From Candidatus Kuenenia stuttgartensis (GTDB taxonomy: Bacteria; Planctomycetota; Planctomycetia; Pirellulales; UBA1268), in contig CAMBSN010000001.1 in assembly GCA_945870505.1 (NCBI GenBank), forward strand, positions 4,795-68,794: a DNA stretch of 64,000 nucleotides, in the 5' to 3' direction. Below, piece after piece: positions 8,551-29,945 of the stretch. The notes under the pieces are model-generated. The model saw only the letters and a list, made by a program, of their open reading frames with translations. It searched no databases and was not told the DNA's origin. The first letter of the stretch is position 1, and the number at the start of each line of letters is the position of its first letter. A program made the position numbers and the translations under genes.

Positions 8551-9633
8551 ATGGCGATTCGCCCATCGAGTTTTGCGTCGGCCGACTCTGCCGTTCGCGA
8601 TCCGCGCGGTGGGTCGCTTGATCCCGCGGTGGTCGTCGATGCGTCGGGTGGTACCCGGCTCTCGACCGCAGGTGAATCGACCAACTGGGTGCTCGGCAAC
8701 AGTGCGGCGATGCGCCGGATCGCGAAGTCGATCGAGCGAGCCGCCGAGGTCGAGTGCACGGTCCTCGTCTGCGGTGAAACCGGCACGGGCAAGGAACTCT
8801 GGGCCAGGCTGCTCCACCGCAGCGGTCCGCGCCGCAACAAGGCCTTCATTCCGGTCAACTGCGCGGCCCTCACGCCGTCGCTTGCGGAAAGCCAACTCTT
8901 CGGCCACGAGAAGGGTTCGTTCACCGGTGCCAACGGGCGTTCGCTCGGTATCTTCCGGGCCGCCGAGGGTGGCATGGTGTTTCTCGACGAGATCGGGGAG
9001 ATGCCGCATGAACTGCAGTCCAAACTGCTTCGCGTGCTGCAGCAGCGCGAGGTGCTCCCCGTCGGCGCCAACGAGCCTGAGCCCATCGATGTGCAGATTG
9101 TCGCGGCCACCAATCGCGACCTCGAAAAAGAGGTCGAGAAGGGAACATTCCGCGAGGATCTCTACTACCGCCTCAACATGATCGAGCTACGGGTGCCGTC
9201 GCTCCGTGAACGGGCCGAGGACATCCCGTCGTACATCGAGTTCTTCTCGATGAAGTTCGCCGATCGTTACCGGCTGCCGAAGTGGAGTCCGAGTGCAGAG
9301 GCGCTCGCCGAGTTCTGCTCGTTCGAGTGGCCGGGCAACGTCCGCCAACTTGAGCACGTGATCGAGCAGGCCTACGTCCTGCAAATGGAGCCCAAGGTTC
9401 CGACGCGGAAGTCGGCAGAGGGTGGGACCACGGGGGTTGCCGTCCCCGGACGCCTGCCCTGCCTCGACCTTGCCAAACTCCGAGAGCAGGCGATCCGCGA
9501 GGCCCTGCAGATGACCCGCGGCCACAAGGCGAATGCTGCCAAGCTTCTTGGCGTCCACGCCAACACGATGACGCGGCTGCTCAAGGAAATCGAGGGCGGC
9601 GAGTCCGCAACCGACGACGACTCGGCCGCCTAG
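8551..9633 (+). CDS. Sigma-54-dependent transcriptional activator (bEBP) lacking an N-terminal sensory/receiver domain
   Basis: AAA+ core: Walker A GETGTGKE; sigma-54 contact loop GHEKGSFTGA (GAFTGA variant); Walker B MVFLDEIGEM; RVLQQREV. C-terminal Fis-type HTH GHKANAAKLLGVHANTMTRLLKEI. Only about 55 aa precede the AAA+ domain. Confidence 0.85.
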   Translation: MAIRPSSFASADSAVRDPRGGSLDPAVVVDASGGTRLSTAGESTNWVLGNSAAMRRIAKSIERAAEVECTVLVCGETGTGKELWARLLHRSGPRRNKAFIPVNCAALTPSLAESQLFGHEKGSFTGANGRSLGIFRAAEGGMVFLDEIGEMPHELQSKLLRVLQQREVLPVGANEPEPIDVQIVAATNRDLEKEVEKGTFREDLYYRLNMIELRVPSLRERAEDIPSYIEFFSMKFADRYRLPKWSPSAEALAEFCSFEWPGNVRQLEHVIEQAYVLQMEPKVPTRKSAEGGTTGVAVPGRLPCLDLAKLREQAIREALQMTRGHKANAAKLLGVHANTMTRLLKEIEGGESATDDDSAA

Positions 9634-9643
9634 TTCTTTCCGA

Positions 9644-10546
9644 CTAGTTCTTTCCCACTGGCCCGCTTTTCGGGTCTCTAGTTGCTGCGTCGCCGCTAGG
9701 TGCGGCTTGCTGGGCCGGCGCCTCCTCGGGCTTGGAAGGTGTCAGCGGCTTTGGCGGCGCCGGCTTTTTCTCCACGGGCCGCGGCCGGTCGTCGTGGTTG
9801 AGTGCCGACGTCCAGCAGCCGCACACATACTTGTCGATCATCCCGATCCGTCGCATGCGATCTCCGTCGACGTCGGTGTAGTACAGGTCGTTCGTGAAGG
9901 CGCCATTTTCATCGAGGTCGCGAAACCGGTCGGCCTCCGTCGGCGTCGCGTCGCCGTCCATGTCGAGCCAGGGCTCGCTGGTCAAGCCTGCCGAGAGAAT
10001 CGACGATCGTGACACCGGCTCGCCGTGGAGCACGAGCGAACGCCCCTCGTGCCAGTCGCCGGCGAACAGCCCACCCGCCTCGAGTGCGATCCGGCCGGCG
10101 TCGAGGAACATCCTATCGCCAACTGGCTTGAGCCCCGAAAGGAGCGGGAGCATCGAGAAGGTGACGAGCGCCCCGCCCGCCACCAGCAGGCCGCCGAGCC
10201 CTCCGGCGACTGCCCCACAGACGCGGTTGGCGACCGCGACGGCGGCCTCGCCGTCATCCAGGGGCTGGTCTTCCTCGTCGCGGTGCAACCCGCGGCGGAT
10301 CAGGGCGAACGTGCCCCAGAGCAGTCCTGCAAACACGACCAGCATGATCCACGACTGGGGCACAAGCGGCCCCAGAACCATCTGAATACCGGCATCGACG
10401 AGGCCGGCGACCGGTTCGTGAGCCACCGTCGCAACGGTCAGGCAGGCCAGGAGCTCGAGCGCTGCCACGACCGCCGCCAGAAGGCCGTGGCGGAAGCCCA
10501 GCCAGCCGCAGCCGAGCACGCTGGCGATCACGAGAAGGTCGTACAT
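9644..10546 (-). CDS. CvpA-like integral membrane protein with Asp-rich (DxDxDG-like) C-terminal region
   Basis: N-terminal hydrophobic helices (MYDLLVIASVLGCGWLGFRHGLLAAVVAALELLACLTV...). C-terminal DMDGDATPTEADRFRDLDENGAFTNDLYYTDVDGD and a Pro/Lys-rich tail. Starts 37 bp downstream of the GspE-like gene on the same strand. Confidence 0.5.
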   Translation of the reverse strand: MYDLLVIASVLGCGWLGFRHGLLAAVVAALELLACLTVATVAHEPVAGLVDAGIQMVLGPLVPQSWIMLVVFAGLLWGTFALIRRGLHRDEEDQPLDDGEAAVAVANRVCGAVAGGLGGLLVAGGALVTFSMLPLLSGLKPVGDRMFLDAGRIALEAGGLFAGDWHEGRSLVLHGEPVSRSSILSAGLTSEPWLDMDGDATPTEADRFRDLDENGAFTNDLYYTDVDGDRMRRIGMIDKYVCGCWTSALNHDDRPRPVEKKPAPPKPLTPSKPEEAPAQQAAPSGDAATRDPKSGPVGKN

Positions 10547-10583
10547 GGCAAGTCCGGTCGTGGGGTGGAAATAACGGGTCGGG

Positions 10584-12362
10584 TCAGCCGGTCACCCGCA
10601 GGATCTCATTGACGGTGGTGTCGCCGTGCACGACCTTCGTCAGGCCGTCGATCTGCATGGTGAGCGTGCCATTGAGCACGGCGGCCGCCTTGAGGTCGCG
10701 AGCCGAGGGCTTGTCCGTGATCAACTTGCGGATCTGGTCGTTCATCACGAGCAACTCGTGCACGGGCACGACGCCGTGGAATCCGGTCTGACCGCACGCG
10801 TCGCATCCCTTTTCCTTGTAGATGTGCTTGATGGCGCCCGGCTTCAGGTTGAACTTCCGCACCAGTGACTCGGGTGGCTCGCAAGGCACCTTACACTTGG
10901 GGCAGAGCCTGCGAGCGAGCCGCTGCGCCAGGATGGCCGTCACTGCCGTCTGCACGAGCATCGGCTCAACACCCAGGTCGAGCAGCCTCATGAGCGCGTC
11001 AATGGTGTCACGGGCCTCGAAGGTGGCGAACACGAAGTGCCCCGTGAGGGCCGCCTGCATCGCGATCTCGCTGGTCTTGCGATCGTCGAGATCGCCAATC
11101 ATCACGACATCCGGGTCCTTCCGCATTACCATCTGCAACACGCTGGCAACCGTTGCACCACCGGCCAGATCCACCTCGATCTGGACGATGTCGTCGAGCG
11201 GTTGCTGCACCGACGCCTCGACCGTCATGATCTTTCGTTTCCTGGCGTCGAGTTCCCGGAGGGCTGCGTAGAGCGTCGTCGTGCGCCCGGCTCCGCTCGG
11301 CCCCACCACCAGCAGCATGCCATAGGGCCTGGAGACGGCCTCGCGGAGCTGGGCGAGGAGCTTGGGGCGAAATCCCAGGGATTCGAGCCCACGCTGATGC
11401 TGGGCCGCATCGGCCCGCTTGAGCCGCAAGAGCATCCGCTCACCAGTGGCTGGGCCCGTCGACTCGACATCAATCTGATACCGCACGCCCCGCAGCAGCA
11501 CGCCGAAAGTCCCCTTTCGGCTCGTGTCGGTATCGGTACCAGCCATGTCGGCCATCACCTTGAGCGTTGCCATCACCCCTCGGGCCTCATCGCTGCCGAT
11601 TTTCTCCAGGCTCTTGTCGCTGCCGCGCGCATGAGCCTTCACTTCGTAGCGGTTATCGGCGGGCTCGAAACTGAGCGTCGCGGCGTTGGCGCGGATGATC
11701 GACTGCAGCAGCTGCTGCGCCTTGAGCACATTCGGTGACACCCGGGTTTCGGGTTTGCCACCCGGCGCAATCGTCATCACGACGGTGCCGTCCTTCTTGA
11801 GGAAGCTGAAGGCGTCGGCTGGTATGATCGCCTTGCCTTTGCGCTTCCCCGACTTTGTCTTCGCGGTGGTTCCGGTCAGTCGCCGTCGCCAGCCACCGAT
11901 CAGGTCAGCGACCTGTTCCTTGAGGCTCCGGGGCGGGCCTCTGTCGGCCGCCCCCGTGGTCCATGGTGCGACGTGCGGCCGGAGCTCAGCCGCCAGATTC
12001 CTGAGCCCTCCCTTGGCCAGCACGCGACGGCCTTCCGGCAATCCTGCATCCTTGGCACGGATGAAGAGAATGGTTGCGACCGCCAGGCAGACTGCGACCG
12101 CCGGCACCGACCACGGAATCCTCAGCACACAGCTCGCCAGCAGCGCCAGGCCGATGACCCCAAAGGTCAGATTCCAGCGACCAGCCTCGTCGGCCCCCAA
12201 AGCCTCGCCCGTTCTCCGCACCCAACCCGCGGCGATGATGCAGGCGGCGATCGCGAGACACAGGCCCATCGTCAGAGCGAGCGGTCCCCAGGGAACAGCC
12301 TGAAACGACGGCACCTCAATCGCGGCCAGCGGGACGAGCGCCGCCGGATCCCGTATCACCAT
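10584..12362 (-). CDS. Membrane-anchored GspE/PilB-family (type II/IV secretion ATPase-like) protein with degenerate catalytic motifs
   Basis: The C-terminal half aligns by eye with secretion ATPases: LLVVGPSGAGRTTTLYAAL, DPDVVMIGDLDD, ALTGHFVFATFEARD, RLCPKCKVPC...KGCDACGQTGFHG. N-terminal hydrophobic helices are LALTMGLCLAIAACIIAAGWV, LTFGVIGLALLASCVL and AVAVCLAVATILFI. Start is ATG 12362, with alternative ATG 12395. The ORF-track start at 12845 overlaps the upstream gene. Confidence 0.8.
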   Translation of the reverse strand: MVIRDPAALVPLAAIEVPSFQAVPWGPLALTMGLCLAIAACIIAAGWVRRTGEALGADEAGRWNLTFGVIGLALLASCVLRIPWSVPAVAVCLAVATILFIRAKDAGLPEGRRVLAKGGLRNLAAELRPHVAPWTTGAADRGPPRSLKEQVADLIGGWRRRLTGTTAKTKSGKRKGKAIIPADAFSFLKKDGTVVMTIAPGGKPETRVSPNVLKAQQLLQSIIRANAATLSFEPADNRYEVKAHARGSDKSLEKIGSDEARGVMATLKVMADMAGTDTDTSRKGTFGVLLRGVRYQIDVESTGPATGERMLLRLKRADAAQHQRGLESLGFRPKLLAQLREAVSRPYGMLLVVGPSGAGRTTTLYAALRELDARKRKIMTVEASVQQPLDDIVQIEVDLAGGATVASVLQMVMRKDPDVVMIGDLDDRKTSEIAMQAALTGHFVFATFEARDTIDALMRLLDLGVEPMLVQTAVTAILAQRLARRLCPKCKVPCEPPESLVRKFNLKPGAIKHIYKEKGCDACGQTGFHGVVPVHELLVMNDQIRKLITDKPSARDLKAAAVLNGTLTMQIDGLTKVVHGDTTVNEILRVTG

Positions 12363-12468
12363 GAAGATTCCCGGACTGCCGCAGCCAACATGCATGGATG
12401 AATCCGCGTCGGCCGCTGCCGCACCTACTCCTGTTCGCGGACGAAAGTATACCTCCAACGACAACTCT

Positions 12469-14334
12469 TCATCCCGGCTCGCGCGGTGCCTCCGGCGGCG
12501 CGGGAAATGCCCGCGTCGGCTCAAGGTCGGCGGCGGCCGCCTGGGCCCGGAGCGTCTCGCCGAGACGTGCCCAGACCCGCGAACGGATCGTGTCGGGCGT
12601 CCAGGCCCAAATCCGGGCGCGCATGAGCACTGGCGTCGAAGCCTGTCGCATCGCACTTTCGTACGACGCATCCACGATTTCCGGAAACGGCGGAAGCTTC
12701 GCTTCCTTGGCGACGTGCTTCGTGCCCGGAGCGCTGGCGGCGTACCGCCGATCGTAGACCGAATACGCCAACTGCATGAACCGGTTGAAGGTGTCGAGCC
12801 GTCCTTTGGCGAGGCCGTCGAGCATGGCCCGTTGCACCATGGCATCGAGAAACTGCCGTGTGTTGGACACGTCGATGTCCATCACGCCCCCAAGCCGCAT
12901 CGCCAGGAACCCTTCCAGTCCCTCAGTGTAGAGCGGTTGGTCGCCGCGTCCGGAATCACTGGCGATGGTCACGAGCTTGCCAAAGCAGCCGGCGGCCTGG
13001 GCTTCATCGCCGTAGAGGTAGGAAAACACCGTTGCCTGCTCCAGGAATGACTCGTACCCGCGAAGCAGGTCATCGATGGTCGCGCGGCCAAACTCCGCGG
13101 CCGAGACACCTTCTGCCGACTGGATCGACTGCACCGCGTTCTGCATCCCACGCTCATAGCCGTCGATGAACCGTGGATCGGGCAGGACGTCGAGCCGGTC
13201 CGAGAGCGGGTCGAATTCGATCCGCCCCGTCCGCATCAAATGCTGAAGGTTGCCCAGCCGCGTGCGGATGATCGTCAACTCGTTGAGCTGTTCGCGATGC
13301 CTTCCCTCGCGGCCGATCGCGATGCCTCGTTCCGCCCAGTAGATGCCGTGGGCATGGGGATGCCCCCAGTCCAATGGCCCATACCGCTCCATCTGCTTGA
13401 GCATGAACTCGGGCGACATGCGGTAGCGGTCGATCAGCACGCGTTTCTGTAGATGGGGCACGAGCCGATCGAAGACCGCCTGCGAGAGCCGCGGGTCGGC
13501 AAGCAGAGCGGTGAGCAGATCGCGGTTAGTGCCCGTCGGCAGCGCCTTCCCAGCGAGGAGTTGTGTGTCGAGCGACGCATCGTAGAGGGCCGCGCGGCCG
13601 AACATGCGGAGAAGGTTTTCGTCTGGCTTCTCCCCGTGCTCGGCCAGGAGCGCGAGGGCATCGGCAACGTCACGATCTTCCCGGAACGACTCCTGATCGT
13701 CCGGGGCCGAGGCAATCCGACGAAACCGCTCGATGGCCTCGGCCGTCGTCCGGCCGCCGGTCAGGTCACCGAGCAACTCCCGAAACTCCCGCACGAGCCG
13801 GGCCTTGTAGTACCAGTGCTCACGGTCGGTTTTGCCGCCGATCTTGTGGAAGTAAATCCAGCCGAGTTCCATCGGCAGGTTCGCGTCGCCGGGATTGAGC
13901 GGAATGCCCTGACTCCGCAGCAGGTCGACACCGCGATTGATCCATTCCCACCGCTCGTCGGCTGACTTGGTGCACACCGAGATGTTGTAGGCGAGGTTCC
14001 AGGCCTGAAAGGCCCAGACCCGGGGAAACCGCGGCTGGAGCGCCGTAATCCACTGGGCGAGCGTCTGCGCTTCGAAGAACTCGCCGGCCTCCTGCAGGGC
14101 GTCGGCCCGCGCCCAGAGGACATCGACCGCCAGCCCGCGAAACGTGCCCAGCGCCGCCGTCGCGAGGGCCACGTGCGGCGGCATCCCCTTGGTGCCTTCC
14201 ATGGAAACGACGAGCCCAAGCGTCTCTCGCTGCCGTCCAATCGACCGGGCTGTCGCGCCGGCACCCACAAGGCAGGCGACGAGCAACGTCGCGGCGATCA
14301 CCTCGATGAAACGATCGGTCATGGGCCGCGGCAC
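12469..14334 (-). CDS. Hypothetical membrane-anchored protein (621 aa), no domain recognised
   Basis: Single N-terminal hydrophobic helix (FIEVIAATLLVACLVGAGA). The rest looks helical and Trp/Arg-rich (WAFQAWNLAYNISV, ERWEWINRGVDLLRSQGIPLNP, GHPHAHGIYWAERG). GC-rich third codon positions. Starts 9 bp after the upstream permease gene. GTG 14334 or ATG 14322. Confidence 0.6.
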   Translation of the reverse strand: MPRPMTDRFIEVIAATLLVACLVGAGATARSIGRQRETLGLVVSMEGTKGMPPHVALATAALGTFRGLAVDVLWARADALQEAGEFFEAQTLAQWITALQPRFPRVWAFQAWNLAYNISVCTKSADERWEWINRGVDLLRSQGIPLNPGDANLPMELGWIYFHKIGGKTDREHWYYKARLVREFRELLGDLTGGRTTAEAIERFRRIASAPDDQESFREDRDVADALALLAEHGEKPDENLLRMFGRAALYDASLDTQLLAGKALPTGTNRDLLTALLADPRLSQAVFDRLVPHLQKRVLIDRYRMSPEFMLKQMERYGPLDWGHPHAHGIYWAERGIAIGREGRHREQLNELTIIRTRLGNLQHLMRTGRIEFDPLSDRLDVLPDPRFIDGYERGMQNAVQSIQSAEGVSAAEFGRATIDDLLRGYESFLEQATVFSYLYGDEAQAAGCFGKLVTIASDSGRGDQPLYTEGLEGFLAMRLGGVMDIDVSNTRQFLDAMVQRAMLDGLAKGRLDTFNRFMQLAYSVYDRRYAASAPGTKHVAKEAKLPPFPEIVDASYESAMRQASTPVLMRARIWAWTPDTIRSRVWARLGETLRAQAAAADLEPTRAFPAPPEAPREPG

Positions 14335-14343
14335 CAGGGGGCT

Positions 14344-16185
14344 TCAGGTCGATGAACGGATGAGGTCGCGCCGCTCGAACAGGGCCCAGGCGGCCAGGCC
14401 AATCACGAGTGGGTAGATCAGTCCGATCCTCCACAGGCACGCCAGCACGTCGCTGGCCGGGATCAGCATCCCGGTTGAGAGCCTACCCACGGCATCAAAG
14501 TCAGAGAACGCCGGCGTCAGCCAGAGCGCGAGGTCGGTGACAAACCCGAACAGCATGCGGAAGGCCTCGTAGAACCGGAACTCGCTGGCCAGGGTTGCAG
14601 CCCGTCCCGCTCGCTCCACCACCGACCCCAGGAAGGATGTCGAGACCATGTTGTAGAGTCCCAGCGCGTCACGGAGAAAGCCGCTCCCGAGGGCCGTCGC
14701 ATAGACAACCAGCGACGCCAGGATCGCCATCGGTAGGCCCAGACAAGACGCCGCGGCAACCGCCACCGCCGCCACCATCGTGAGCTTGATCCAAACCACC
14801 GCCAGGCAGCGGATGAAGTTGCCGTCAAACCCGCCGGCCCGGTGGAGAATCCGCAGGCCATCGCCGGGAGAAAACGTAATCGTCGTTGGCTTTGTCTCGC
14901 CATCAGGAACGAGGTTTCGATTGGCGATGGTCAGTCGCAGATTGCCCTCCTCATCCACGGCCTCCACCGGCAGATCGAGAACGTGCACCGCCTGGGTGGG
15001 CAGGATCTGCTCCACGTGGTCACCGTCCATCACCGGCCACGGACGGTCATTGAGCCAGATCGCGAACCGCACGTCTGCCAGGTCGACCTCAACGTTGTAG
15101 GCCCGTGGCTTGAGTTGCAGCTGCAGCGTGGTGTCAGCCGTGCCTGCCGCCCGCCGCTTCGCGTCACCGAGACCTCGAAACACGTAGGTCGACACCGTAT
15201 CAGGCGTGACGGTATGCCACTGCCAGTCGTATTCCTGGCGAATCCGCCTGCGGGCAGCACCGGGATTCCTCTCGAAGGCGTCGGGCTCATCCTCCTCCAA
15301 CTGCTGGATCGCGGCGGCGATCGCCGCGTCGTATTCGACGGGGTTCGCGGGCTCTGGATCGAGGGCGATGCGGGCGGTGAGGACCTGCTCCGTCACAGCC
15401 GCGCGATCCTGCGGATCCGTCGCTTCCGTGCCGGCTAGCAGCCTCACGAACGTGGCCGTGCCCGCTCCCACCAGAGCGACCATCAGCAGGTCGAAGAGCG
15501 CGATCCCGAGCCACTTGCCCACCAGGTATTCCCACCGCTGCAACGGCTTGACGAGCGTCATGTGAATGCGGCCCGAGTCGATGTCGCCGCAGATCGAGCC
15601 GCACGCCAGGACGATGGTGAGTAACGAGAGGATCACGCCGGTGACGCCCAGCGACCAGCTCAGGAGAAACTGCACGCGGTAGTGCAGCCGCTCCGAGTGG
15701 TCGAGCGCCAGCGGCAGCGTGGGCACCAGCACGAGGACGAGCATCGCAAGCCCAAGCGACACCCGCATCCGCACGGCCTCGTCAACCACCGCGCGAGCCA
15801 CGCCGATGACGCCCGTCGAGCCTGAGAGCAGGAGATGAATACCGGCAAGCCCGAGCCAGCAGCCCGTCGCCATGCCAATCACGCCGGCCAGCCCGGTGGC
15901 CTCAAGTAGCCGGCCGTGCCGCACGAGAAACCAGACGGCAACCACGGCCGCGACGGTGGCGATGACGGCCGTCGCCTTCCGCCGCCACTGCGGCGTGGCC
16001 TGAAACTCCCGCCATGCCCACCAGGCACACAGGGCCGCAACGCAGGCCTGCACGACGATGCCGATGCCCACGCCAACACCCCGTGCACACGCCTCGGCGA
16101 CGAGACTGCCGACGGCAAGGAGAAGCAGGGGGCGTCCTGCACGGCGCCAGGGCTGAGCCGGTCTGTTCATCACGGCCACTGTCAC
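14344..16185 (-). CDS. ABC-2-type transporter permease-like protein with extra N-terminal helices and a large (~250 aa) soluble insert
   Basis: Polytopic at both ends. GDIDSGRIHMTLVKPLQRWEYLVGKWLG resembles the conserved loop of ABC-2 (NosY/GldF-like) permeases and is paralogous to TREIENKTVLTVVSKPVPRPVLVIGKYVG in 21864-22850. GTGA overlap with the ATPase gene (alternative ATG 16170). Confidence 0.6.
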   Translation of the reverse strand: MTVAVMNRPAQPWRRAGRPLLLLAVGSLVAEACARGVGVGIGIVVQACVAALCAWWAWREFQATPQWRRKATAVIATVAAVVAVWFLVRHGRLLEATGLAGVIGMATGCWLGLAGIHLLLSGSTGVIGVARAVVDEAVRMRVSLGLAMLVLVLVPTLPLALDHSERLHYRVQFLLSWSLGVTGVILSLLTIVLACGSICGDIDSGRIHMTLVKPLQRWEYLVGKWLGIALFDLLMVALVGAGTATFVRLLAGTEATDPQDRAAVTEQVLTARIALDPEPANPVEYDAAIAAAIQQLEEDEPDAFERNPGAARRRIRQEYDWQWHTVTPDTVSTYVFRGLGDAKRRAAGTADTTLQLQLKPRAYNVEVDLADVRFAIWLNDRPWPVMDGDHVEQILPTQAVHVLDLPVEAVDEEGNLRLTIANRNLVPDGETKPTTITFSPGDGLRILHRAGGFDGNFIRCLAVVWIKLTMVAAVAVAAASCLGLPMAILASLVVYATALGSGFLRDALGLYNMVSTSFLGSVVERAGRAATLASEFRFYEAFRMLFGFVTDLALWLTPAFSDFDAVGRLSTGMLIPASDVLACLWRIGLIYPLVIGLAAWALFERRDLIRSST

Positions 16186-17309
16186 GGCTGTCGGTTCGTG
16201 AGTCGATCGATGAGTGCCGTATCGACGGGTCCGGTGGCCTCAGCCACCGGCTCAACGGCCGTCGCGCCAGTAGTTGGCGTTGCCGATTCCACCTGAGGCG
16301 CTGGCTCAACGGCCGCAGCCTCCGAAGGTGCCGCTCCCGAACGAAGAAAGTCGGCAACCCGCCCTCCGGAGGTGGCCCCGCTGGTCCGGGCCCCTTCCGC
16401 ACGGGCCTGCTCGACGATCTCCAGAAAGAGCGACTCCATCCGTCGCCGCGGCCGCTCGACGTCAACAGAGTCGATCCCGTGCCGCTCAAGCACACCGCGG
16501 ACCTCGGCCACCACCGCAGGCGGCAGGGCGGCGGTCCGGATCGTCGTGCAGTCCTCCTGCGCGAGCAGTTCGTCGCAGGTGCCCTCGGCCCGCACCCGGC
16601 CGCCAAACATGATCGCCACGCGGTCGCAGAGATCCTCGACGTCCGACAGCTGATGCGTGCAGAGCAGCACCGTCTTGCCGCGGCGCCCGAGGTCGGCGAT
16701 GAGATCCTTGATCTGCTTCGCCCCAACCGGATCCATCCCGCTGGTGGGCTCGTCGAGGATCAGCAGCTGCGGGTCGTTGATCAGGCTCTGGGCAAGCCCG
16801 ACCCGCCGCTGCATGCCCTTGGAAAACTCGCCCACTGGCCGGTGCTCGACCGCGTCGAGCCCCACCATCTCGAGAAGCATGTCGATCCGTTCGCGACGCA
16901 CCCGCGTGGGCAGGCGAAACAGCCGGCCGTAGTAGTCGAGCGTTTCCCGGGCCGACAGAAAGCGATAGAGGTAGCTCTCCTCTGGCAGGTAGCCGATCCG
17001 TTGCTTGGAGGCCACATCCCGCGGACGACGGCCAAGCACCGCGATCCGGCCCGATGTCGGCGAGATTAACCCGAGGATCATCTTGATGGTGGTGCTCTTC
17101 CCGGAACCGTTGGGACCGAGAAGCCCGTAGATCTGCCCGCGGCGGACCTCAAGGTCGACACCCTCCACGGCCCTGACCCGCGGCCGCAGCCAGAAGTCGC
17201 GAAACGTCTTGGTGAGCCCCGCGCACTTGATGTCGACACCATCGGCTGCGTCGACGGGCCGCCCGGGCGCGGTCTCGGGATCCTGCCGCTCGTTATCTGT
17301 CGCGATCAT
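16182..17309 (-). CDS. ABC transporter ATP-binding protein with Ala/Pro/Thr-rich C-terminal extension
   Basis: Walker A GLLGPNGSGKST, signature FSKGMQRRVGLAQ, Walker B LLILDEPTSGMD, H-loop LLCTHQL. Confidence 0.9.
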   Translation of the reverse strand: MIATDNERQDPETAPGRPVDAADGVDIKCAGLTKTFRDFWLRPRVRAVEGVDLEVRRGQIYGLLGPNGSGKSTTIKMILGLISPTSGRIAVLGRRPRDVASKQRIGYLPEESYLYRFLSARETLDYYGRLFRLPTRVRRERIDMLLEMVGLDAVEHRPVGEFSKGMQRRVGLAQSLINDPQLLILDEPTSGMDPVGAKQIKDLIADLGRRGKTVLLCTHQLSDVEDLCDRVAIMFGGRVRAEGTCDELLAQEDCTTIRTAALPPAVVAEVRGVLERHGIDSVDVERPRRRMESLFLEIVEQARAEGARTSGATSGGRVADFLRSGAAPSEAAAVEPAPQVESATPTTGATAVEPVAEATGPVDTALIDRLTNRQP

Positions 17310-17351: not shown

Positions 17352-18608
17352 TCACCTGCCAGACTCCGCCTGCTTTTCCTTGAGTGACCGGATCTGTTCC
17401 TGCTGCCGCTCCTTCTGAATCACGGGATCGCGATTGAGCTGTAGTTCGAGCTTGCCAGGGACGGTGTAGAACGTCTCCACGTCGCCGGTCAGGATCCGCT
17501 CACGGGCATCCTCCCAGAGCCGCGAGAGGATGATCCGTGGATTGCGTTCGTACTGGGGAAGGAGCCGCTGGAAGGTCTCGCTATCCCCCTTCACCCGCTC
17601 CACCACCTGGGTGCGGTAGGTCTTCGCCGCATTGACGACCTGGGCGACCTCGCCGCCGATCGATGCCCCCTCGATCCTCAGCTCGCCAAACGCTTCCTCG
17701 ATTCCCCGCTCGCTGGCCGCGGCCTCGTCCGGGGTGCCGGCCTCGCCAGCCCGCTCAAACCGATCGAGCAGGGCCAGGATCTTCTCCGCCCCCTCGCCGG
17801 CCGTCTCGCCCAGGATTCGCGCTCGATCCTGCTGGGCCGTCACGATCCGCTGTGACCGATCCGACTCGGCGGTGGTGACGGCGTCAAAGCTGGCGATCAC
17901 GCTCACCGGCGCCGACACCTTATCGAGCGTCAACTGGTCGACCGTCAGCCCCGTACCCATTTCCGTGAGCCGCCGCTGCGCCACGGCCGTCGCCACCTCT
18001 CGGTTGACCACGCCCTTCAAGAGATCGTCCGCGGGCAGCTGCGCGATCGCCTGGACGATCCCCTGCTGGGTGGCACAGGCGACGAGGCTCTCGGCGAGCG
18101 GACGCTCCCCCACATTGGTCGTGTAGGCGACCGGATCGGTCACGCGGTACGTCACGGTCCAACGGGCGTGGGCGATGTTCATGTCGCCCGTCACGAGGGA
18201 GCCGTCGCGGACCGGATTGAGCGGCCGGGCGCGAGAGTTACGGATCTGATCCCGGGTCATGCCCTGGTCGCGATCACCCGACTCGTACCAGAACGCCTCG
18301 TCGATCGCGAGCGTCATGGGCCGCGTGTCGATCTTAATAACCTGCTCGAGCGGAAACGGAGCCGCCAGATAAGTGCCCCGCTCCAGCACCCGCTGGCCGG
18401 GGCTCCCCACGTAGTCGCCGAATCGTAGCCGCAGCGCCACTTCGTTCGATCCGACACTGAACGTGCCGCTGAAGGCGTAGGCGATGAGGGCCACGACCAT
18501 CGCGGCCTTAAGGAGGCCAAAACTCACCCGCAGTGCCTCGGCAAGCGACTGCTGGGCGGGATCGAGAGGCTCGATATCGGCCTCGGAACGGTCGGTGGAA
18601 TTCGTCAT
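17352..18608 (-). CDS. SPFH/band-7 domain protein, HflK-like
   Basis: N-terminal TM helix. SPFH core (NEVALRLRFGDYVG..., SLVTGDMNIAHARWTVTYRVTDPVAY, GLTVDQLTLDKVSAP), then a long coiled-coil-like tail. ATGA overlap with the upstream SPFH gene. Confidence 0.75.
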   Translation of the reverse strand: MTNSTDRSEADIEPLDPAQQSLAEALRVSFGLLKAAMVVALIAYAFSGTFSVGSNEVALRLRFGDYVGSPGQRVLERGTYLAAPFPLEQVIKIDTRPMTLAIDEAFWYESGDRDQGMTRDQIRNSRARPLNPVRDGSLVTGDMNIAHARWTVTYRVTDPVAYTTNVGERPLAESLVACATQQGIVQAIAQLPADDLLKGVVNREVATAVAQRRLTEMGTGLTVDQLTLDKVSAPVSVIASFDAVTTAESDRSQRIVTAQQDRARILGETAGEGAEKILALLDRFERAGEAGTPDEAAASERGIEEAFGELRIEGASIGGEVAQVVNAAKTYRTQVVERVKGDSETFQRLLPQYERNPRIILSRLWEDARERILTGDVETFYTVPGKLELQLNRDPVIQKERQQEQIRSLKEKQAESGR

Positions 18609-19609
18609 CGTCCGACCCCGCCCCCTGTGGCCTGCGGGGGACGTCCGGCCGGCTTCCCGGTAGGTAGCCCCTGCCCTGGGTCGCGGTTGAACCAGTCGAG
18701 GATCCCGAGACTGTCTGCCGAAAGCACGAACGTCGTGTTGTGGTCGAGCATCTTCTTGAGCGCCTCCACCTTCCGTAGGAAGATCGCAAACTCTTCGTTC
18801 TTGGCGAAGCTCTCGTACTCCTTCGAGGCCTCGCGGTCTCCCTGCGAGCGGATCGCCTGGGCCCGCCTCTCGGCGAAAGCGAGGATCCTATCCCGGGAAC
18901 TCTTGGCCTCACTGCGAATGGCGGAGGCCTGGGCCTGACCCTCTTGAAGCGCGTTCTCCGCAAGCCGCTCGCGGGTTTTGATCATTGTCTCGAAGATCTT
19001 CTCGGTGGTCGCTTCCGGGAGCACGAGCTTATAGATGCCCACGCTCTCAACCTTAAGGCCGTAGCCGGATTGTTCCAGCGACTTTTCCAGCGCCTGCTTC
19101 GCTTCATCTTCGATCGCGGCGAGTTTGAGCTTGTCGCGGTCGAGATTCACGAGCTCGTCGAGACGGTAGCGACTGATAATGCCGCGGATCTCCCGCAGTC
19201 GGCTGGCAAGCTGACGTGCCGCCTCGCTCGGATCCTTGAGGGTGATATAGAAATCAAGCGGGTTCTCGATTCTCCACGTTAGGTACGTGCGCACGATGAC
19301 GCTCTTGCCGTCGGCGGTCTGCAACTCCTCGATCTTGTCCTCGAGGAGTTGCAGCCGCTTGGAATAGTGGGTGATCTTGTGGATCGGCCACGGCAGCCGC
19401 CACTTCAGGCCGGGTGTGTCCTGCACGCTCCCCTCGTCAGCCTTGTCGAAGGTCGTGCGGACCGCCACCTGGTCGTAACGGACCTGATAGAGAAACATGT
19501 GGGAGAGCAGGGCCGCTGCGATCAGGCAGCCGATCAGGATCGTGAATGAGTTTTTCATGGGTCTGTCGTCTCCGTGCCGCCATGCAAGGCCAGCACGCTC
19601 CAGGGTCAT
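18605..19609 (-). CDS. SPFH/band-7 domain protein, HflC-like
   Basis: TM helix FTILIGCLIAAALLSHMF. YQVRYDQVAVRTTFDK...PGLKWRLPWPIHKI, LTWRIENPLDFY, GLKVESVGIYKLVLPE, RERLAENALQEGQAQASAIRSEA. ATGA overlap with the upstream gene; alternative start ATG 19558 (MKNSF). Confidence 0.8.
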   Translation of the reverse strand: MTLERAGLAWRHGDDRPMKNSFTILIGCLIAAALLSHMFLYQVRYDQVAVRTTFDKADEGSVQDTPGLKWRLPWPIHKITHYSKRLQLLEDKIEELQTADGKSVIVRTYLTWRIENPLDFYITLKDPSEAARQLASRLREIRGIISRYRLDELVNLDRDKLKLAAIEDEAKQALEKSLEQSGYGLKVESVGIYKLVLPEATTEKIFETMIKTRERLAENALQEGQAQASAIRSEAKSSRDRILAFAERRAQAIRSQGDREASKEYESFAKNEEFAIFLRKVEALKKMLDHNTTFVLSADSLGILDWFNRDPGQGLPTGKPAGRPPQATGGGVGR

Positions 19610-21729
19610 TGTCCGAGCAGGGTGTCGAGGGCCGAGGTCGGGTCGCTGAAGTCCATCTGCAGGATCGGGAGGTCCCCCTGGTCGCCGGCGATGATGAACT
19701 TCCGCCGCTCCGCCAGGCCGTCGGCAAGCACCTCGAGGAACTTCCGCACGCGGTAGTAGTTCGGCGACTTTTCGAAGGCCAAAAGCTCCCCGGCGAAACG
19801 CTCGCGGGCGCTGCGTTCGCCGACCGCCTTCGTCCAGCGGTAGCCGCGGGCGGCGTGAATCAGTTCCGCAGCCTCGCCTCGGGCCTCGCCGAGCAGCGTC
19901 TCGATGTCGAGTTCCAGGATCGCGGTCCGCCGAGCCACGGCTGGGTCGTCGCCCACGGTCGTCCGCAGGGCATCGAGTTCGAGGATCGCGGCGTTAATCC
20001 GGTTGCTGTGGTCGACCGAGCCGGCCACCTTCGCCAACATCGTCACAGCTTCTTTCCGACCCGCCTCGATCAGCGTCTCTCGCTCCTGTTGGGCGCCGAT
20101 CTGCCGGTGGAATGCCCGGGCCACCTTACCTCCCGGTGGCTTGAGGACTGTCACCGAAACGCCCACCACGTCAAGCCCCAACCCGAGGCGGTTGGCCCGA
20201 TCCTGAATCGCCTTTTCCAACACGACGCCCCCTTCAGTGCGGCCGCTGGTCAGCAGTTCGTCGAGGCAGTGGCTGACGAAATAGCGGCTCGCCTCCTGCT
20301 GGGCAATCAGGGTGATCGCCTCCCGCGGGGATAGCGAACCTTCTAGAAAGTCGAGGAGGTCGCGGACGCGGTATTGGACAACGAGGTCGGCGGCGATGAC
20401 CGCCAGCCCACCCGCGCCCTCAGCCCGCGCGTCGAGGACCGTCGGGTAGTACTCCATGCCGACCGTGTCGAATCGATCGTCGCCGCTGCTCCAGAGAATC
20501 GCCTGCTGGTTCGCCGAGCGACCGATGGGATCGCTCGAGACTTCGATCTGCAGCACTTTGCCAACGGGGTAGGTCGCGGCAGTCTCGATCGGCCACGGCA
20601 GCTTGATGTGGATGCCGGGCCCCCGGGCGGCCCCCCGCACCGCACCACACCGCATCACCACGCCCTGCTCATCGGGGCCGACGACTACGAGCGTCGACAG
20701 GGCCACCAGCACGGCACCGCCAAGAATCGTGAGCGGCGTGATGGCCCGTCCGAGGAGCCGGTAGAGCCAGCTCCGCGAGACCTCGACGCCGAACTGGTAG
20801 TTGATCAACTCGCCGACCACCTGCCCCAGCGACTCGGGTGCCGTCAGCAGGCCGAGCACTCGGCTGTCGAACGCCGGCCTCGGAACCTCGCCTGGCCGCC
20901 GCGGCCGGTAGGCTTCCAGCAGGCCCGTGAGCAGAATCTCAGACCCGACGAGCATCATCACGCAGGGCACCGCCACCGCGACGATGCGGAAGAACGAGGT
21001 GTCGTCGAGAAGCGCCGCCACGACTGCTCCCGCCAGCACGAGCGCGGCGAGCACGAAGCAGCTCATCAGGTAGCTGGCGCCACCCCGCAGCAGTCGCCAG
21101 GCCCTGACGCGTGTGTAGCCGCTGATCCAGCGAGCGGAGATGAAGGCCACGAACGCAATCGCCGCCGAGACGAACAGGAGCCCCACCGGGCTCGCCCCCG
21201 GCGCGAGTGTGGTTACCACGTTCGGTCCAGCCGCGGCGGCAAGCCGCCAGAACCGCCACACGAGCGCCGCACCGGCGACGATCAGATAGACCGCCACCAG
21301 GAAACTCACCGCCGGAAGCCCGACGCCGAGCAGGCTCGACAGCCGCTGGCGCGCTCGCTGGAGTTCGTCGGAAAGATCGCCGAACAGCACGGACGATGCG
21401 GCGTCTTGCGCCGCGAGTTTCTCCGCGGCCAGGGATTCCCGCCGCTCCGCGTCGTACTGCGCGTAGACCAGCGCCAGAATGATCCAGATCGGCAGTCCAC
21501 CCAGCATGTGCCAGGTCGCCGCCTGGATCGCGGGGCTCTGCGTCCAGAGGCCAACAAGCGCCGTCGCGACCGTCAGTCCCACCTGGATGACCAGGCCGGC
21601 GATGGCGGCATTGGTACCGCGGCGGTAGACGAGAGGATCGTCGATCACGAATGAAGGTTCCGGCTGGCAGGATGCCCACGGCCGGCGCAGAATGCCGCCC
21701 GAGTCTGTCAACGGACTCCAGTTTACCAT
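19606..21729 (-). CDS. Polytopic membrane protein with C-terminal SPFH/band-7 domain
   Basis: The first ~380 aa contain about 7 hydrophobic helices. The SPFH core follows (GPDEQGVVMRCGAV...GIHIKLPWPIE, DLVVQYRVRDLLDF, GLDVVGVSVTVLKPP, AFHRQIGAQQERE). Start is uncertain: ATG 21729 avoids overlap with the divergent gene, while the ORF track gives 21906. Confidence 0.7.
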   Translation of the reverse strand: MVNWSPLTDSGGILRRPWASCQPEPSFVIDDPLVYRRGTNAAIAGLVIQVGLTVATALVGLWTQSPAIQAATWHMLGGLPIWIILALVYAQYDAERRESLAAEKLAAQDAASSVLFGDLSDELQRARQRLSSLLGVGLPAVSFLVAVYLIVAGAALVWRFWRLAAAAGPNVVTTLAPGASPVGLLFVSAAIAFVAFISARWISGYTRVRAWRLLRGGASYLMSCFVLAALVLAGAVVAALLDDTSFFRIVAVAVPCVMMLVGSEILLTGLLEAYRPRRPGEVPRPAFDSRVLGLLTAPESLGQVVGELINYQFGVEVSRSWLYRLLGRAITPLTILGGAVLVALSTLVVVGPDEQGVVMRCGAVRGAARGPGIHIKLPWPIETAATYPVGKVLQIEVSSDPIGRSANQQAILWSSGDDRFDTVGMEYYPTVLDARAEGAGGLAVIAADLVVQYRVRDLLDFLEGSLSPREAITLIAQQEASRYFVSHCLDELLTSGRTEGGVVLEKAIQDRANRLGLGLDVVGVSVTVLKPPGGKVARAFHRQIGAQQERETLIEAGRKEAVTMLAKVAGSVDHSNRINAAILELDALRTTVGDDPAVARRTAILELDIETLLGEARGEAAELIHAARGYRWTKAVGERSARERFAGELLAFEKSPNYYRVRKFLEVLADGLAERRKFIIAGDQGDLPILQMDFSDPTSALDTLLGQ

Positions 21730-24964: not shown

Positions 24965-26062
24965 TCACTCGTATGAGCCGGTCTGTGCCGTGCGCAGACG
25001 ACGTGTCCACATCTGGTCGGCGACCTCTTGGTAGCCAAGGTCTCCGATCGTCCCATCCTTCGCATTGCCGAGATAACCGTCACCCGTGTTCTTGACCTCC
25101 GTCGCACCCGACGTGACCGTGTCCTGAACCTTCTCGACGTGCAGGTCGGCGAACAGGATCGGCGCGTAGCCGCCGCCGCCGCCAGCCGTCTTCGGCTGGT
25201 GAAGGGGTTCGATCGCCGTGAACTCGTGAATCTTCACGCCCGCGGTGGTGTCACCGGTCACGGTTCCCGCAACCGTCATGCCGCCAGTGAAACTCTGCGT
25301 CAGCAGGTCGTTCGCCTTGACGACCGGACTGCCGACAAAGTTGACCATGGTCGTCGCATCAGCAGCGAGGACCGGGGTCGCTGCCGCCCGGGCCGGTCCC
25401 ATCAACGCCACGCGGGCCGCGGTCGTATTACCCTGGGCGAGGTGGTTCTGCGTCAGCGGACCATCACCATTCGTCAGGCTCTTCGTGCCCGGGTCATAGC
25501 CGGTCGAGGCCGTGGGGTCGCCGCGGCTGAAGTGCCACGTGGTGGCGTAGTTGGTGTTATGGCCTTGATCCCACACTTCTTTGGCCTTCGCGTCGCCACC
25601 AAAGGCAGTTTCGCCCGACTTGCTGGCGAAGGAGTCGGCACTTTCCCAGCGGCCAGCGTCGATGCCGCTCTGAAAGTTGGCGGTCGTATCGCTGCCACTG
25701 ACACCCATGTACGAGGCCGTCGTCGCGCTGACCTTGTTACGGCTGCCTTGGTCGAGGGCCTTGCCCGGCTGCGACACCTTCTGGGTGATCAGATCGGCCA
25801 CCCAGCCATATGTGCGGACATCGCCGTCACGGCAGTGGTCATAGGCACCGGAACTGTAGTTCCCGTTGTTGGCATTCGCGTAAAGTTCGAATCCGCGTCC
25901 GAAACCCGACATGTTGCTGGCGCTGCCCGAGGCGTTGGCCGCCGAGCGGGCTGACGAAAGGGCTGGCAGCAGCAGGGCCACCAGAACGCCGATGATCGCG
26001 ATCACGACCAGCAGCTCGACGAGCGTGAAGCCGCGACGAACGCGGCACGACGAACGACTCAT
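24965..26062 (-). CDS. DUF1559-type protein with prepilin N-terminal cleavage/methylation domain
   Basis: [45 protein letters not shown], and C-terminal ILFADLHV. Start at ATG 26062 (MSRSSCRV). Confidence 0.8.
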
Positions 26063-29703: not shown

Positions 29704-29945
29704 GCCGCTCGAGCGTTCAAAGAGCACCGACCGGCCGCAACTGACCGATGGGGAAGCCCCTAATCGTAAGCGGACACATCACCCGCGACAAACGACCTCC
29801 CACCTCAAATCGCGAGCCTTGCGGGAAAAGCGGCGGAAAATCGCGTGCCCTGATCTGGATCGCGGTGGAAGTTCCCCGCGACACCCCATAGACTTTCCCG
29901 ATCGTGATCACCGGCCGTTTCGCCACTTCCGCGTTCCCTCCCCGC

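Follow-up and report, generated by a model that had tools for sequence, protein, structure and literature searches.

A membrane-anchored GspE/PilB-like protein with a degenerate catalytic core, a probable pseudo-ATPase, in a Pirellulales lineage

Background

A stretch of 64,000 nucleotides from Candidatus Kuenenia stuttgartensis (contig CAMBSN010000001.1; hereafter the window) carries, on the minus strand at positions 10584-12395, a gene for a membrane-anchored homologue of the PilB/GspE motors, ATPases that assemble pili and secretion systems in bacteria; in this homologue nearly all catalytic residues have been replaced. We consider it likely that this gene encodes a functional pseudo-ATPase, which would most likely serve as a non-enzymatic structural or regulatory component. 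The protein appears to be a PilB/GspE-type motor protein that three N-terminal helices of its own tether to the cytoplasmic membrane. The motor fold with its two lobes, the zinc site and the P-loop glycines and threonines are retained, but the protein would no longer hydrolyze ATP and has probably lost canonical Mg-ATP binding. As in the definition of a pseudoenzyme, it is a homologue of an enzyme family, it has lost catalytic residues and it is under purifying selection. PilT/PilB/GspE motors have been described with an invariant catalytic core (PMC5424180), and a natural, selection-maintained clade without this core would represent a second, non-enzymatic use of the fold.

The gene and its product

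In the list of open reading frames (ORFs) of the window, the gene lies within a single long ORF on the minus strand (10584-12845), whose first 150 codons run into the 3' end of the upstream gene, termed here 62x, which has its stop at 12469. Two candidate ATG starts are left after this overlap, at 12395 and 12362. The initial annotation used the latter (592 amino acids), but the true start is most likely the ATG at 12395, 11 codons further upstream, giving a product of 603 amino acids. This choice is based on the N-terminus MH.G.GS shared by the homologues P0001 and P0003-P0006, on a 603-aa gene call in a public contig (L090) identical to the window, and on the occurrence of the exact 603-aa protein in public collections. 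The motifs discussed below are unaffected by the choice of start, and residue numbers refer to the 603-aa product throughout. The identical gene sequence is present in two independent assemblies. The maximal 753-aa ORF was rejected as the gene: it overlaps the end of 62x, extending 376 bp into it, and has no homologue support. The window has a GC content of 64-70%, and its mechanical ORF list is rich in long spurious or overlapping ORFs; for example, a 766-aa SPFH ORF corresponds to 680 aa in the gene call on the public contig. The gene and its parts are as follows.

10584-12395, minus strand: membrane-anchored degenerate PilB/GspE homologue, 603 aa (ORF, T2SSE match, homologue N-termini)
12048-12290, minus strand: three transmembrane (TM) helices, residues 36-116, after the conserved VPSFxGxPW motif (Kyte-Doolittle peaks, AlphaFold2 (AF2) model)
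11736-12047, minus strand: cytoplasmic linker, residues 117-220 (AF2 secondary structure)
11406-11735, minus strand: N2D domain, residues 221-330; ERRRPQDG(R) and D-x-R arginine-finger motifs lost (alignments)
11463-11522, minus strand: region of the lost arginine-finger motifs in N2D (alignments, column counts)
10587-11387, minus strand: C-terminal ATPase-fold domain (CTD), residues 337-603 (Foldseek matches to 5tsh, 5oiu and 5zfr; dN/dS, the ratio of nonsynonymous to synonymous substitution, 0.066)
11274-11303, minus strand: Walker A GPSGAGRTTT, Lys replaced by Arg371 (alignments, column counts)
11205-11225, minus strand: Asp box TVEASVQ, Glu393 kept, Mg-binding Glu replaced by Gln397 (alignments, column counts)
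11082-11108, minus strand: atypical Walker B and catalytic position VVMIGDLDD, Glu replaced by Asp435 and Arg by Asp437 (alignments, column counts)
11007-11045, minus strand: His box TGHFVFATFEARD, His453 kept, γ-phosphate His replaced by Glu460 and Asn by Arg462 (alignments, column counts)
10794-10904, minus strand: tetracysteine zinc motif CPKC...CDAC, Cys498/501/531/534 (invariant in 62/62 sequences)

Loss of the catalytic residues

The register of the motifs was taken from phmmer/HMMER alignments to the solved structures of Thermus thermophilus PilF, Vibrio GspE and Geobacter PilB, and the numbering of G. metallireducens PilB (PilB_Gm) was obtained by counting along the 5zfr alignment. The Walker A motif is GPSGAGRTTT, compared with GPTGSGK(S/T) in the family; the Asp box is TVEASVQ instead of TIEDPVE; the Walker B region is VVMIGDLDD instead of IIMVGEIRD; and the His box is TGHFVFATFEARD instead of TGHLVIATLHTND. 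The phosphate-binding Walker A lysine is thus Arg371. Residue E357 of PilB_Gm, which coordinates Mg, aligns with Gln397; the catalytic Glu (E395) with Asp435; the arginine of GEIRD with Asp437; and H420, which contacts the γ-phosphate, with Glu460 (roles from PMC5424180). The arginine finger R271 aligns with Thr296, and the second finger, R286, with Asp309 (Gln307 in one alignment), with no Arg or Lys in residues 307-311. The residues that are completely or highly conserved in PilT-like ATPases were reported by McCallum 2017 (PMC5424180). As aligned here, every residue described there as universally conserved is replaced: the Walker A Lys, the catalytic Glu, the Asp-box Glu, the His-box His and the two arginine fingers.

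These alignments agree with the initial annotation, which had read by eye a Lys-to-Arg change in Walker A, a Glu-to-Asp change with loss of Arg in Walker B, and loss of the second His of the His box; the profile and structure-based registers both have Arg371, Gln397, Asp435 and Glu460 in place of the catalytic Lys, the two Glu and the His. Loss of both arginine fingers adds to that list. The description of the Asp box as degenerate was accurate for its last Glu, the Mg ligand, but its first Glu (TVE, residue 393) is kept and invariant. Also kept are the P-loop glycines and threonines, Thr451, His453 (equivalent to H413) and the four zinc cysteines. The tetracysteine motif had been described as intact, and Cys498, 501, 531 and 534 are indeed invariant in 62/62 sequences.

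Because the lost residues have established roles (PMC5424180), we infer that the protein does not hydrolyze ATP. Canonical binding of Mg-ATP is unlikely as well, since the protein lacks the Mg ligand as well as both phosphate-binding arginines and has a carboxylate in place of the γ-phosphate His.

Fold and membrane domain

The Pfam T2SSE profile (PF00437; cut-off 24.9 bits) gives the protein a score of 259.9 bits, in an alignment that runs from profile position 13 to the last, 370. The NCBIfam equivalogs match its C-terminal 375 residues at about half their cut-offs: GspE TIGR02533 at 317 versus 630, and PilB TIGR02538 at 288 versus 676. An AF2 model, built as a single chain from 62 aligned sequences, has a mean predicted local distance difference test score (pLDDT) of 83, with values above 90 across most of the CTD. 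In Foldseek comparisons, template modelling (TM) scores to PilB and PilF are 0.87-0.90 at 31-34% identity; the match to PilB_Gm 5tsh has TMt 0.90, E = 1e-37 and a root-mean-square deviation of 2.9 Å. The bilobed N2D + CTD RecA-like fold is therefore retained in the model, and the expectation that fold and zinc site are preserved holds for the model and for the invariant Cys4 set, respectively.

Three hydrophobic N-terminal helices, already noticed in the initial annotation, are evident from Kyte-Doolittle hydropathy and from the AF2 model (helices 36-66, 68-91 and 96-116, pLDDT 81-94). They are followed in the model by two cytoplasmic helices, a Lys/Arg-rich disordered linker with low-pLDDT segments at 145-152 and 175-190, a small β-hairpin (FSFLKKDGTVV), N2D and the CTD. 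The hairpin carries the motif FxFLKKDG, whose residues K201, D202 and G203 range from conserved to nearly invariant. An N-out, C-in topology would fit the positive charges that follow TM1 and TM3. No match to the N1D/GSPII domain (PF05157) was found even at E ≤ 5; residues 1-220 consist of the TM helices and the linker.

A degenerate clade within an intact family

A search of 5.8 billion proteins for homologues yielded about 105 near-full-length relatives, all with an N-terminal hydrophobic domain, and extraction of their motifs separated them into two clean groups. The majority, family A, is catalytically intact, with the motifs GPTGSGKTTT, TIEDPVE, VLLVGEIRD and TGHFVFSTLHAND. The other group, clade B, has GPxGxGR(T/S)(T/S)T, no catalytic Glu, and Glu or Asp in place of the His; it comprises the query and P0001-P0011, P0013, P0015, P0027, P0040, P0050, P0054, P0062, P0067, P0068, P0089 and P0118. 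Twenty of its sequences are full-length and are 42-93% identical. The survey of homologues that had been proposed thus found the losses shared by a whole clade. Residue counts in 20 clade-B and 42 family-A sequences were as follows.

Position 371 (Walker A): clade B, R 20/20; family A, K 41/42
Position 460 (His box): clade B, E or D 20/20; family A, H 42/42
Position 462: clade B, R or K 20/20; family A, N 41/42
Position 435 (catalytic): clade B, D14, S2, E1, P1, G1, R1; family A, E 42/42
Position 397 (Mg ligand): clade B, E7, A5, Q4, K3, G1; family A, E 42/42
Position 437: clade B, P9, D7, G2, E1, A1; family A, R 42/42
Position 309 (arginine finger 2): clade B, D10, Q6, E3, K1; family A, R 42/42

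Judged by these counts, the old catalytic positions are unconstrained in clade B, and the pocket positions 371, 460 and 462 have been re-fixed to new residues. Ten sites, including K371R and H460E, are fixed differently between the two groups, and 48 sites that are at least 95% conserved in family A are variable in clade B, clustering in the ERRRPQDG, Asp-box, Walker-B and His-box regions. Within clade B, 118 columns are invariant. In the P-loop, G365, P366, G370 and T374 are strictly conserved and T372 and T373 nearly invariant; Glu393 is invariant. At the first arginine finger (position 296), family A itself has T34, G6 and A2 among 42 sequences, i.e., PQDG-T/G/A versus the canonical PQDG-R; both fingers are completely conserved in PilT-like ATPases according to McCallum 2017 (PMC5424180).

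The VPSFxGxPW motif and the three-TM N-terminal domain are common to both groups. Membership of this uncurated family (A + B) can be recognized by VPSFxGxPW with three TM helices, the FLKKDG hairpin and a CvpA-like gene directly downstream, and the gene of the window has all of these features. The initial annotation was right that the anchor is present and is not found in canonical motors, but the anchor is not tied to degeneration, as the intact family A has the same one; it is ancestral rather than special to the dead clade.

In a profile search of 1.84 billion representatives at 50% identity, clade B fell into two or three clusters and family A formed a single one; because both collapse to so few clusters, the family is narrow. 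The same search found other TM-anchored GspE-like clusters with intact motifs. Source names of the clade-B and family-A proteins are Pirellulales or Planctomycetia. A truncated relative, P0261 (457 aa), has an Arg-containing Walker A motif, GPPGSGRTT, but keeps the GEIRD Arg in DPDVLLVGDIRD; its His box is disrupted. This could be an intermediate, or else a degenerate-clade protein with a frameshift. The next-best matches after the two groups (P0106, P0110-P0119 and P0242-P0255) are proteins of about 1000 aa with two tandem T2SSE units, and both Walker A motifs are intact in most of them.

Selection and evolutionary rate

Values of dN/dS were calculated by the Nei-Gojobori method between the window and a 92.7% identical homologue (L176); the contigs L090 and L091 were unsuitable for this purpose, being identical or nearly identical to the window.

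Whole gene: 0.16
C-terminal domain: 0.066
N2D: 0.092
Linker: 0.22
TM region: 0.52
CvpA-like neighbor: 0.14
62x fragment: 0.05

The values of 0.066-0.092 on the fold domains indicate strong purifying selection. They bear on the possibility that the gene is a decaying gene or an annotation artefact without function, an idea suggested by the number of catalytic motifs lost, by the 753-aa maximal ORF that overlaps the upstream gene, and by the unreliability of ORF calls in DNA of 66% GC. Its probability is negligible: besides the low dN/dS, the 603-aa ORF is intact in at least 20 lineages with identities as low as 42%, the clade has 118 invariant columns, and the sequence recurs in independent assemblies. 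A pseudogene is excluded on these grounds, and decay is effectively refuted.

The motor core of clade B nevertheless evolves faster than that of family A. At equal genome divergence (ABC ATPases 81-84% identical), the core is 93% identical between two family-A genomes, whereas between clade-B genomes it is 46-64% identical, which implies that constraint on the clade-B motor core is relaxed. This difference also argues against a second alternative, in which the protein is still an ATPase but a non-canonical one, with Arg371 in the role of the Walker Lys, Asp435 in that of the catalytic Glu, and the arginine fingers replaced by Arg462 or a different basic residue. The invariant P-loop glycines and threonines and Glu393, the new basic residue fixed at 462, and the strong purifying selection on the fold domains are all compatible with such an enzyme. 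Catalytic residues, however, would not be expected to drift as positions 435, 397 and 309 do in clade B, a carboxylate in place of the γ-phosphate His should repel the γ-phosphate, and the core changes at several times the rate seen in the intact family. We consider a non-canonical ATPase quite improbable. The clade-wide losses, the drift at catalytic positions and the dN/dS of 0.07-0.09 together strengthen the earlier suggestion of a pseudo-ATPase.

Origin of the degenerate clade

Clade B appears to descend from family A, a Planctomycetota-specific, membrane-anchored and catalytically intact GspE-like family. In one Pirellulales lineage, the motor chemistry would have been lost and the γ-phosphate pocket re-fixed with Arg371, with Glu or Asp at 460 and with Arg or Lys at 462.

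Two trees differ in where they place clade B. A neighbor-joining (NJ) tree built from the ATPase core groups all clade-B sequences together (20/20), with family A as a whole as their sister group. In a tree of the adjacent CvpA-like proteins, those linked to clade B are also monophyletic but are nested within those linked to family A, as sister to a group from loci L003, L009, L017, L100, L101, L103, L125 and L126. Since the slower-evolving CvpA tree nests B inside A, the deep placement of clade B is treated with caution; it is probably a long-branch effect. Gene order provides additional information: the site upstream of a prepilin-like gene, geneX, holds a family-A pair (the motor gene and its CvpA-like partner) in syntenic family-A genomes, and in the window it holds FtsH without any T2SSE gene. 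The simplest reading is that a single copy moved into the terminal position of the 62x operon and degenerated afterwards, so that clade B would be an orthologous replacement.

A different possibility is that the clade-B protein is a regulatory or hetero-oligomeric subunit of an intact family-A motor encoded elsewhere, tuning the live motor through mixed hexamers or through competition for the CvpA-like/prepilin machinery. The NJ tree is what an old duplication would produce. Clade-B proteins and their closest family-A relatives also share lake metagenome samples, Ga0129333 (L097 with L102 and L126) and Ga0209229 (L099 with L100), and regulation of live enzymes by dead paralogues is a known pattern (PMC5201418). 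On the other hand, no second T2SSE gene was found in the 64-kb window or within ±10 kb of any clade-B locus, the deep tree position may be the long-branch artefact noted above, the exchange of the A pair for FtsH upstream of geneX suggests one relocated copy rather than two, and each pair has its own CvpA-like gene. A scan of a genome collection with a mixed A+B alignment gave only family A and canonical GspE, and no clade-B sequence, among the matches listed. We regard the hetero-oligomeric subunit as unlikely.

Gene neighborhood

The pseudo-ATPase gene, which we favor as the product of relocation and degeneration, is flanked by the following genes. Their order was taken from the gene calls on L090, mapped onto the window.

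9644-10546, minus strand: CvpA-like (Colicin_V) membrane protein, 300 aa, roughly four TM helices, C-terminal domain acidic (homology)
12469-14322, minus strand: 62x, 617 aa, N-terminal TM helix and α-solenoid, no Pfam family (AF2)
14344-16170, minus strand: ABC-2 permease (Pfam, NCBIfam, gene calls)
16182-17309, minus strand: ABC ATPase (Pfam, NCBIfam, gene calls)
17352-18608, minus strand: SPFH/Band-7 (HflK/C-like) protein, 418 aa (Pfam, NCBIfam, gene calls)
18605-19558, minus strand: SPFH/Band-7 (HflK/C-like) protein, 317 aa (Pfam, NCBIfam, gene calls)
19606-21648, minus strand: SPFH/Band-7 (HflK/C-like) protein, 680 aa, first of three (Pfam, NCBIfam, gene calls)
24965-26062, minus strand: geneX, prepilin-like, class-III signal RRG|, G|FTLVE (PF07963 N_methyl, 33.6 bits)

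The array from the three SPFH genes to the CvpA-like gene is co-directional, with intergenic distances ranging from a 4-bp overlap to 73 bp. A promoter/terminator scan of 9400-12700, uninformative for Planctomycetota promoters, placed neither promoters nor terminator-like sites in the intergenic gaps, including those flanking the T2SSE gene.

The CvpA-like gene begins 37 bp past the T2SSE stop codon. Its product matches PF02674 weakly, at 15 bits; the cut-off is 29.3, and family-A homologues score 33.5 bits. The gene lies directly downstream in 9/9 clade-B loci with downstream sequence (the window/L090, L001, L004, L005, L006, L096, L097, L099 and L176) and in 25/27 family-A loci. The CvpA-like membrane protein is thus the constant partner gene of both families. 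In the C-terminal soluble part of the protein, residues ~195-235 contain the acidic motifs DMDGDATPTEAD, DLDENGAFTNDL and DVDGDRM, which resemble DxDxDG calcium-binding loops.

On the upstream side, clade B adjoins the SPFH-ABC-62x block throughout: the clade-B gene has 62x as its immediate upstream neighbor in 7 distinct loci, and some loci have a TPR (tetratricopeptide repeat) gene and an opposite-strand DUF1559 prepilin-like gene in between. A block of three SPFH genes, ABC, ABC2 and 62x also occurs without an adjacent T2SSE gene in L092-L095, where none follows 62x, and is thus an independent module; the same absence after 62x is seen in the family-A genome L114. In L003, L009, L101, L103 and L114, the distance from a family-A pair to the downstream array geneX-[P-type ATPase]-ABC2(-)-[SPFH×3]-ABC-ABC2-62x is 0-7 kb. 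Since the TM-GspE/CvpA pair is near the block in both families, although in different orders, a functional link between pair and block is plausible on the basis of gene order. The initial annotation had proposed a scaffold or regulator for the neighboring ABC/SPFH proteins. Their adjacency holds throughout clade B, but the constant partner is the CvpA-like gene, and the block can occur without T2SSE.

In the window, geneX heads the conserved block geneX-P-type ATPase-ABC2-SPFH-ABC-62x, which is syntenic with L101, L103 and L114; its orthologues in these family-A genomes are 55-61% identical and have the same position. The family-A setting generally consists of a CvpA-like polytopic membrane protein downstream and prepilin-like (N_methyl/DUF1559) genes around. 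No PilC/GspF (T2SSF) gene was found among the genes called within ±10 kb at 9 loci, and no PilM/GspL or secretin gene was seen near the gene in the loci examined.

Several other features of the neighborhood were recorded. The 62x protein is 64-95% identical across 120 homologues among the matches listed, with many invariant Trp, Arg and Pro residues, and is always preceded by an ABC ATPase and an ABC-2 permease. Its AF2 model (pLDDT 83, predicted TM-score 0.78) shows an N-terminal TM helix and an all-α solenoid; Foldseek comparison of this model with the PDB gave only generic TPR/α-solenoid noise, the best match having E = 0.017. The 680-aa SPFH protein has an N-terminal extension of ~330 residues with roughly 6-8 hydrophobic segments before Band_7, unlike the single-pass HflK/C. 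About 6 kb upstream of the three HflK/HflC-like SPFH genes, and separated from them by prepilin-like, P-type ATPase and ABC-2 genes, is a gene for the protease FtsH (Peptidase_M41 + AAA; 27610-29727, minus strand), which HflK and HflC are known to modulate. Convergent with the CvpA-like gene is a gene for a σ54-dependent activator (8551-9633, plus strand), which has only AAA+ and helix-turn-helix domains, without a receiver or sensor, and is PspF-like; this arrangement is kept in L001 and L090 and not in other clade-B loci. The operon was also considered as a known defense system and rejected, as a PADLOC scan gave only generic ABC-ATPase similarity.

Proposed role

We propose that the SPFH-ABC transporter-62x operon ends with the clade-B pair, which would be co-transcribed with it, and that the pseudo-ATPase still joins its CvpA-like partner in a membrane assembly. 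In this position it would act as a static, or a ligand- or conformation-gated, scaffold or regulator and not as an energy source. In P-loop proteins generally, the Walker A lysine contacts the γ-phosphate. Because this lysine and His420 of PilB_Gm both make such a contact, we suggest that an ion pair between Arg371 and Glu/Asp460 would fill the γ-phosphate pocket and lock the protein in one conformation. Any need for energy could be met by the ABC ATPase or another motor, and the protein may be coupled to the SPFH-ABC-62x envelope module.

Several points weigh against this proposal. Asp435 is still acidic, and Arg sometimes substitutes for Lys in P-loops. Conservation of the P-loop and of Glu393 suggests continued binding of a ligand that contains phosphate, so that "static scaffold" is perhaps too strong. 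The protein presumably oligomerizes and has physical partners, but we infer the latter from gene order alone, and the SPFH-ABC-62x block exists in other genomes without a T2SSE gene. Finally, an intact family-A paralogue elsewhere in the same genome may, if there is one, matter for the mechanism.

A broader idea, which we offer tentatively and think rather doubtful, is that these genes belong to an undescribed five-part envelope machine of Planctomycetota, consisting of the GspE-like protein, the CvpA-like protein, prepilin-like (N_methyl/DUF1559) proteins, an ABC transporter with 62x and, often, SPFH proteins. It would resemble a type IV filament system but have no PilC/GspF platform. In one Pirellulales lineage its motor would be locked and non-hydrolyzing, with the Arg371-Glu460 pair mimicking an occupied γ-phosphate site. 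If so, the machine would run without ATP hydrolysis by its own motor, e.g., on the adjacent ABC ATPase.

Comparison with known systems

Database entries label these proteins "GspE/PulE family protein" or "type II secretory ATPase". For clade B, a label as a GspE/PilB ATPase appears functionally misleading: such proteins should not be filed under it, because five residue-level features, the N1D domain, equivalog-level scores and the platform context are lacking. Full-text literature searches gave no report of a PilB/GspE that is membrane-anchored or degenerate by nature. Clade B offers natural dead variants for studying the roles of the hexamer beyond ATP hydrolysis. Family A, which is intact, membrane-anchored, CvpA-paired, without a platform protein and widespread in Planctomycetota, is uncharacterized. 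Genomes of Planctomycetota contain dozens of orphan prepilin-like (DUF1559) genes each, whose assembly machinery is unknown (PMC10632474), and family A with its associated gene set is perhaps a more important lead than clade B.

The protein described here shares with the PilB/GspE motors (PilB 5TSH/5TSG, PilF 5OIU, EpsE/GspE 1P9R/4KSR) the N2D + CTD fold, the tetracysteine zinc motif, the atypical Walker B layout and the TGH of the His box. It differs from them in that three TM helices and a basic linker replace the N1D/GSPII domain, and in that the Walker Lys, the Mg-binding Glu, the catalytic Glu, the γ-phosphate His and both arginine fingers are replaced. Unlike these systems, it also has no PilC/GspF, PilM/GspL or secretin gene nearby and scores at about half the equivalog cut-offs.

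Its closest counterpart is family A (e.g., P0056 and P0099), with which it has in common the N-terminal domain, the linker hairpin, a length of 575-600 aa, the zinc site, the CvpA-like gene downstream, DUF1559/N_methyl genes nearby and, often, a close ABC-62x block. Family A, in contrast, keeps the Lys, both Glu, both His and the second arginine finger in 41-42 of 42 sequences and evolves slowly (core 93% versus 46-64%), and its loci contain two genes that clade-B loci lack, one for a product of ~460-480 aa and one for a TPR protein.

Members of the PilT/PilB family can also work without hydrolysis of their own. A PilT of V. cholerae with a dead Walker box still supports retraction via PilU, and PilB of M. 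xanthus signals by its nucleotide state (both reviewed in PMC11656802). In these cases, as proposed for clade B, a hexamer can be an adaptor or signaling element; however, they are laboratory mutants or moonlighting enzymes, whereas the loss in clade B is natural, multi-site, clade-fixed and found in a membrane-anchored protein.

The anchor itself invites one further comparison. In canonical type II secretion systems, a separate bitopic protein binds the N1D domain of the motor. The GspL and PilM-PilN tethers (GspE-GspL complex, 4PHT) likewise hold a motor at the inner membrane, but in the protein described here the anchor lies within the same polypeptide.

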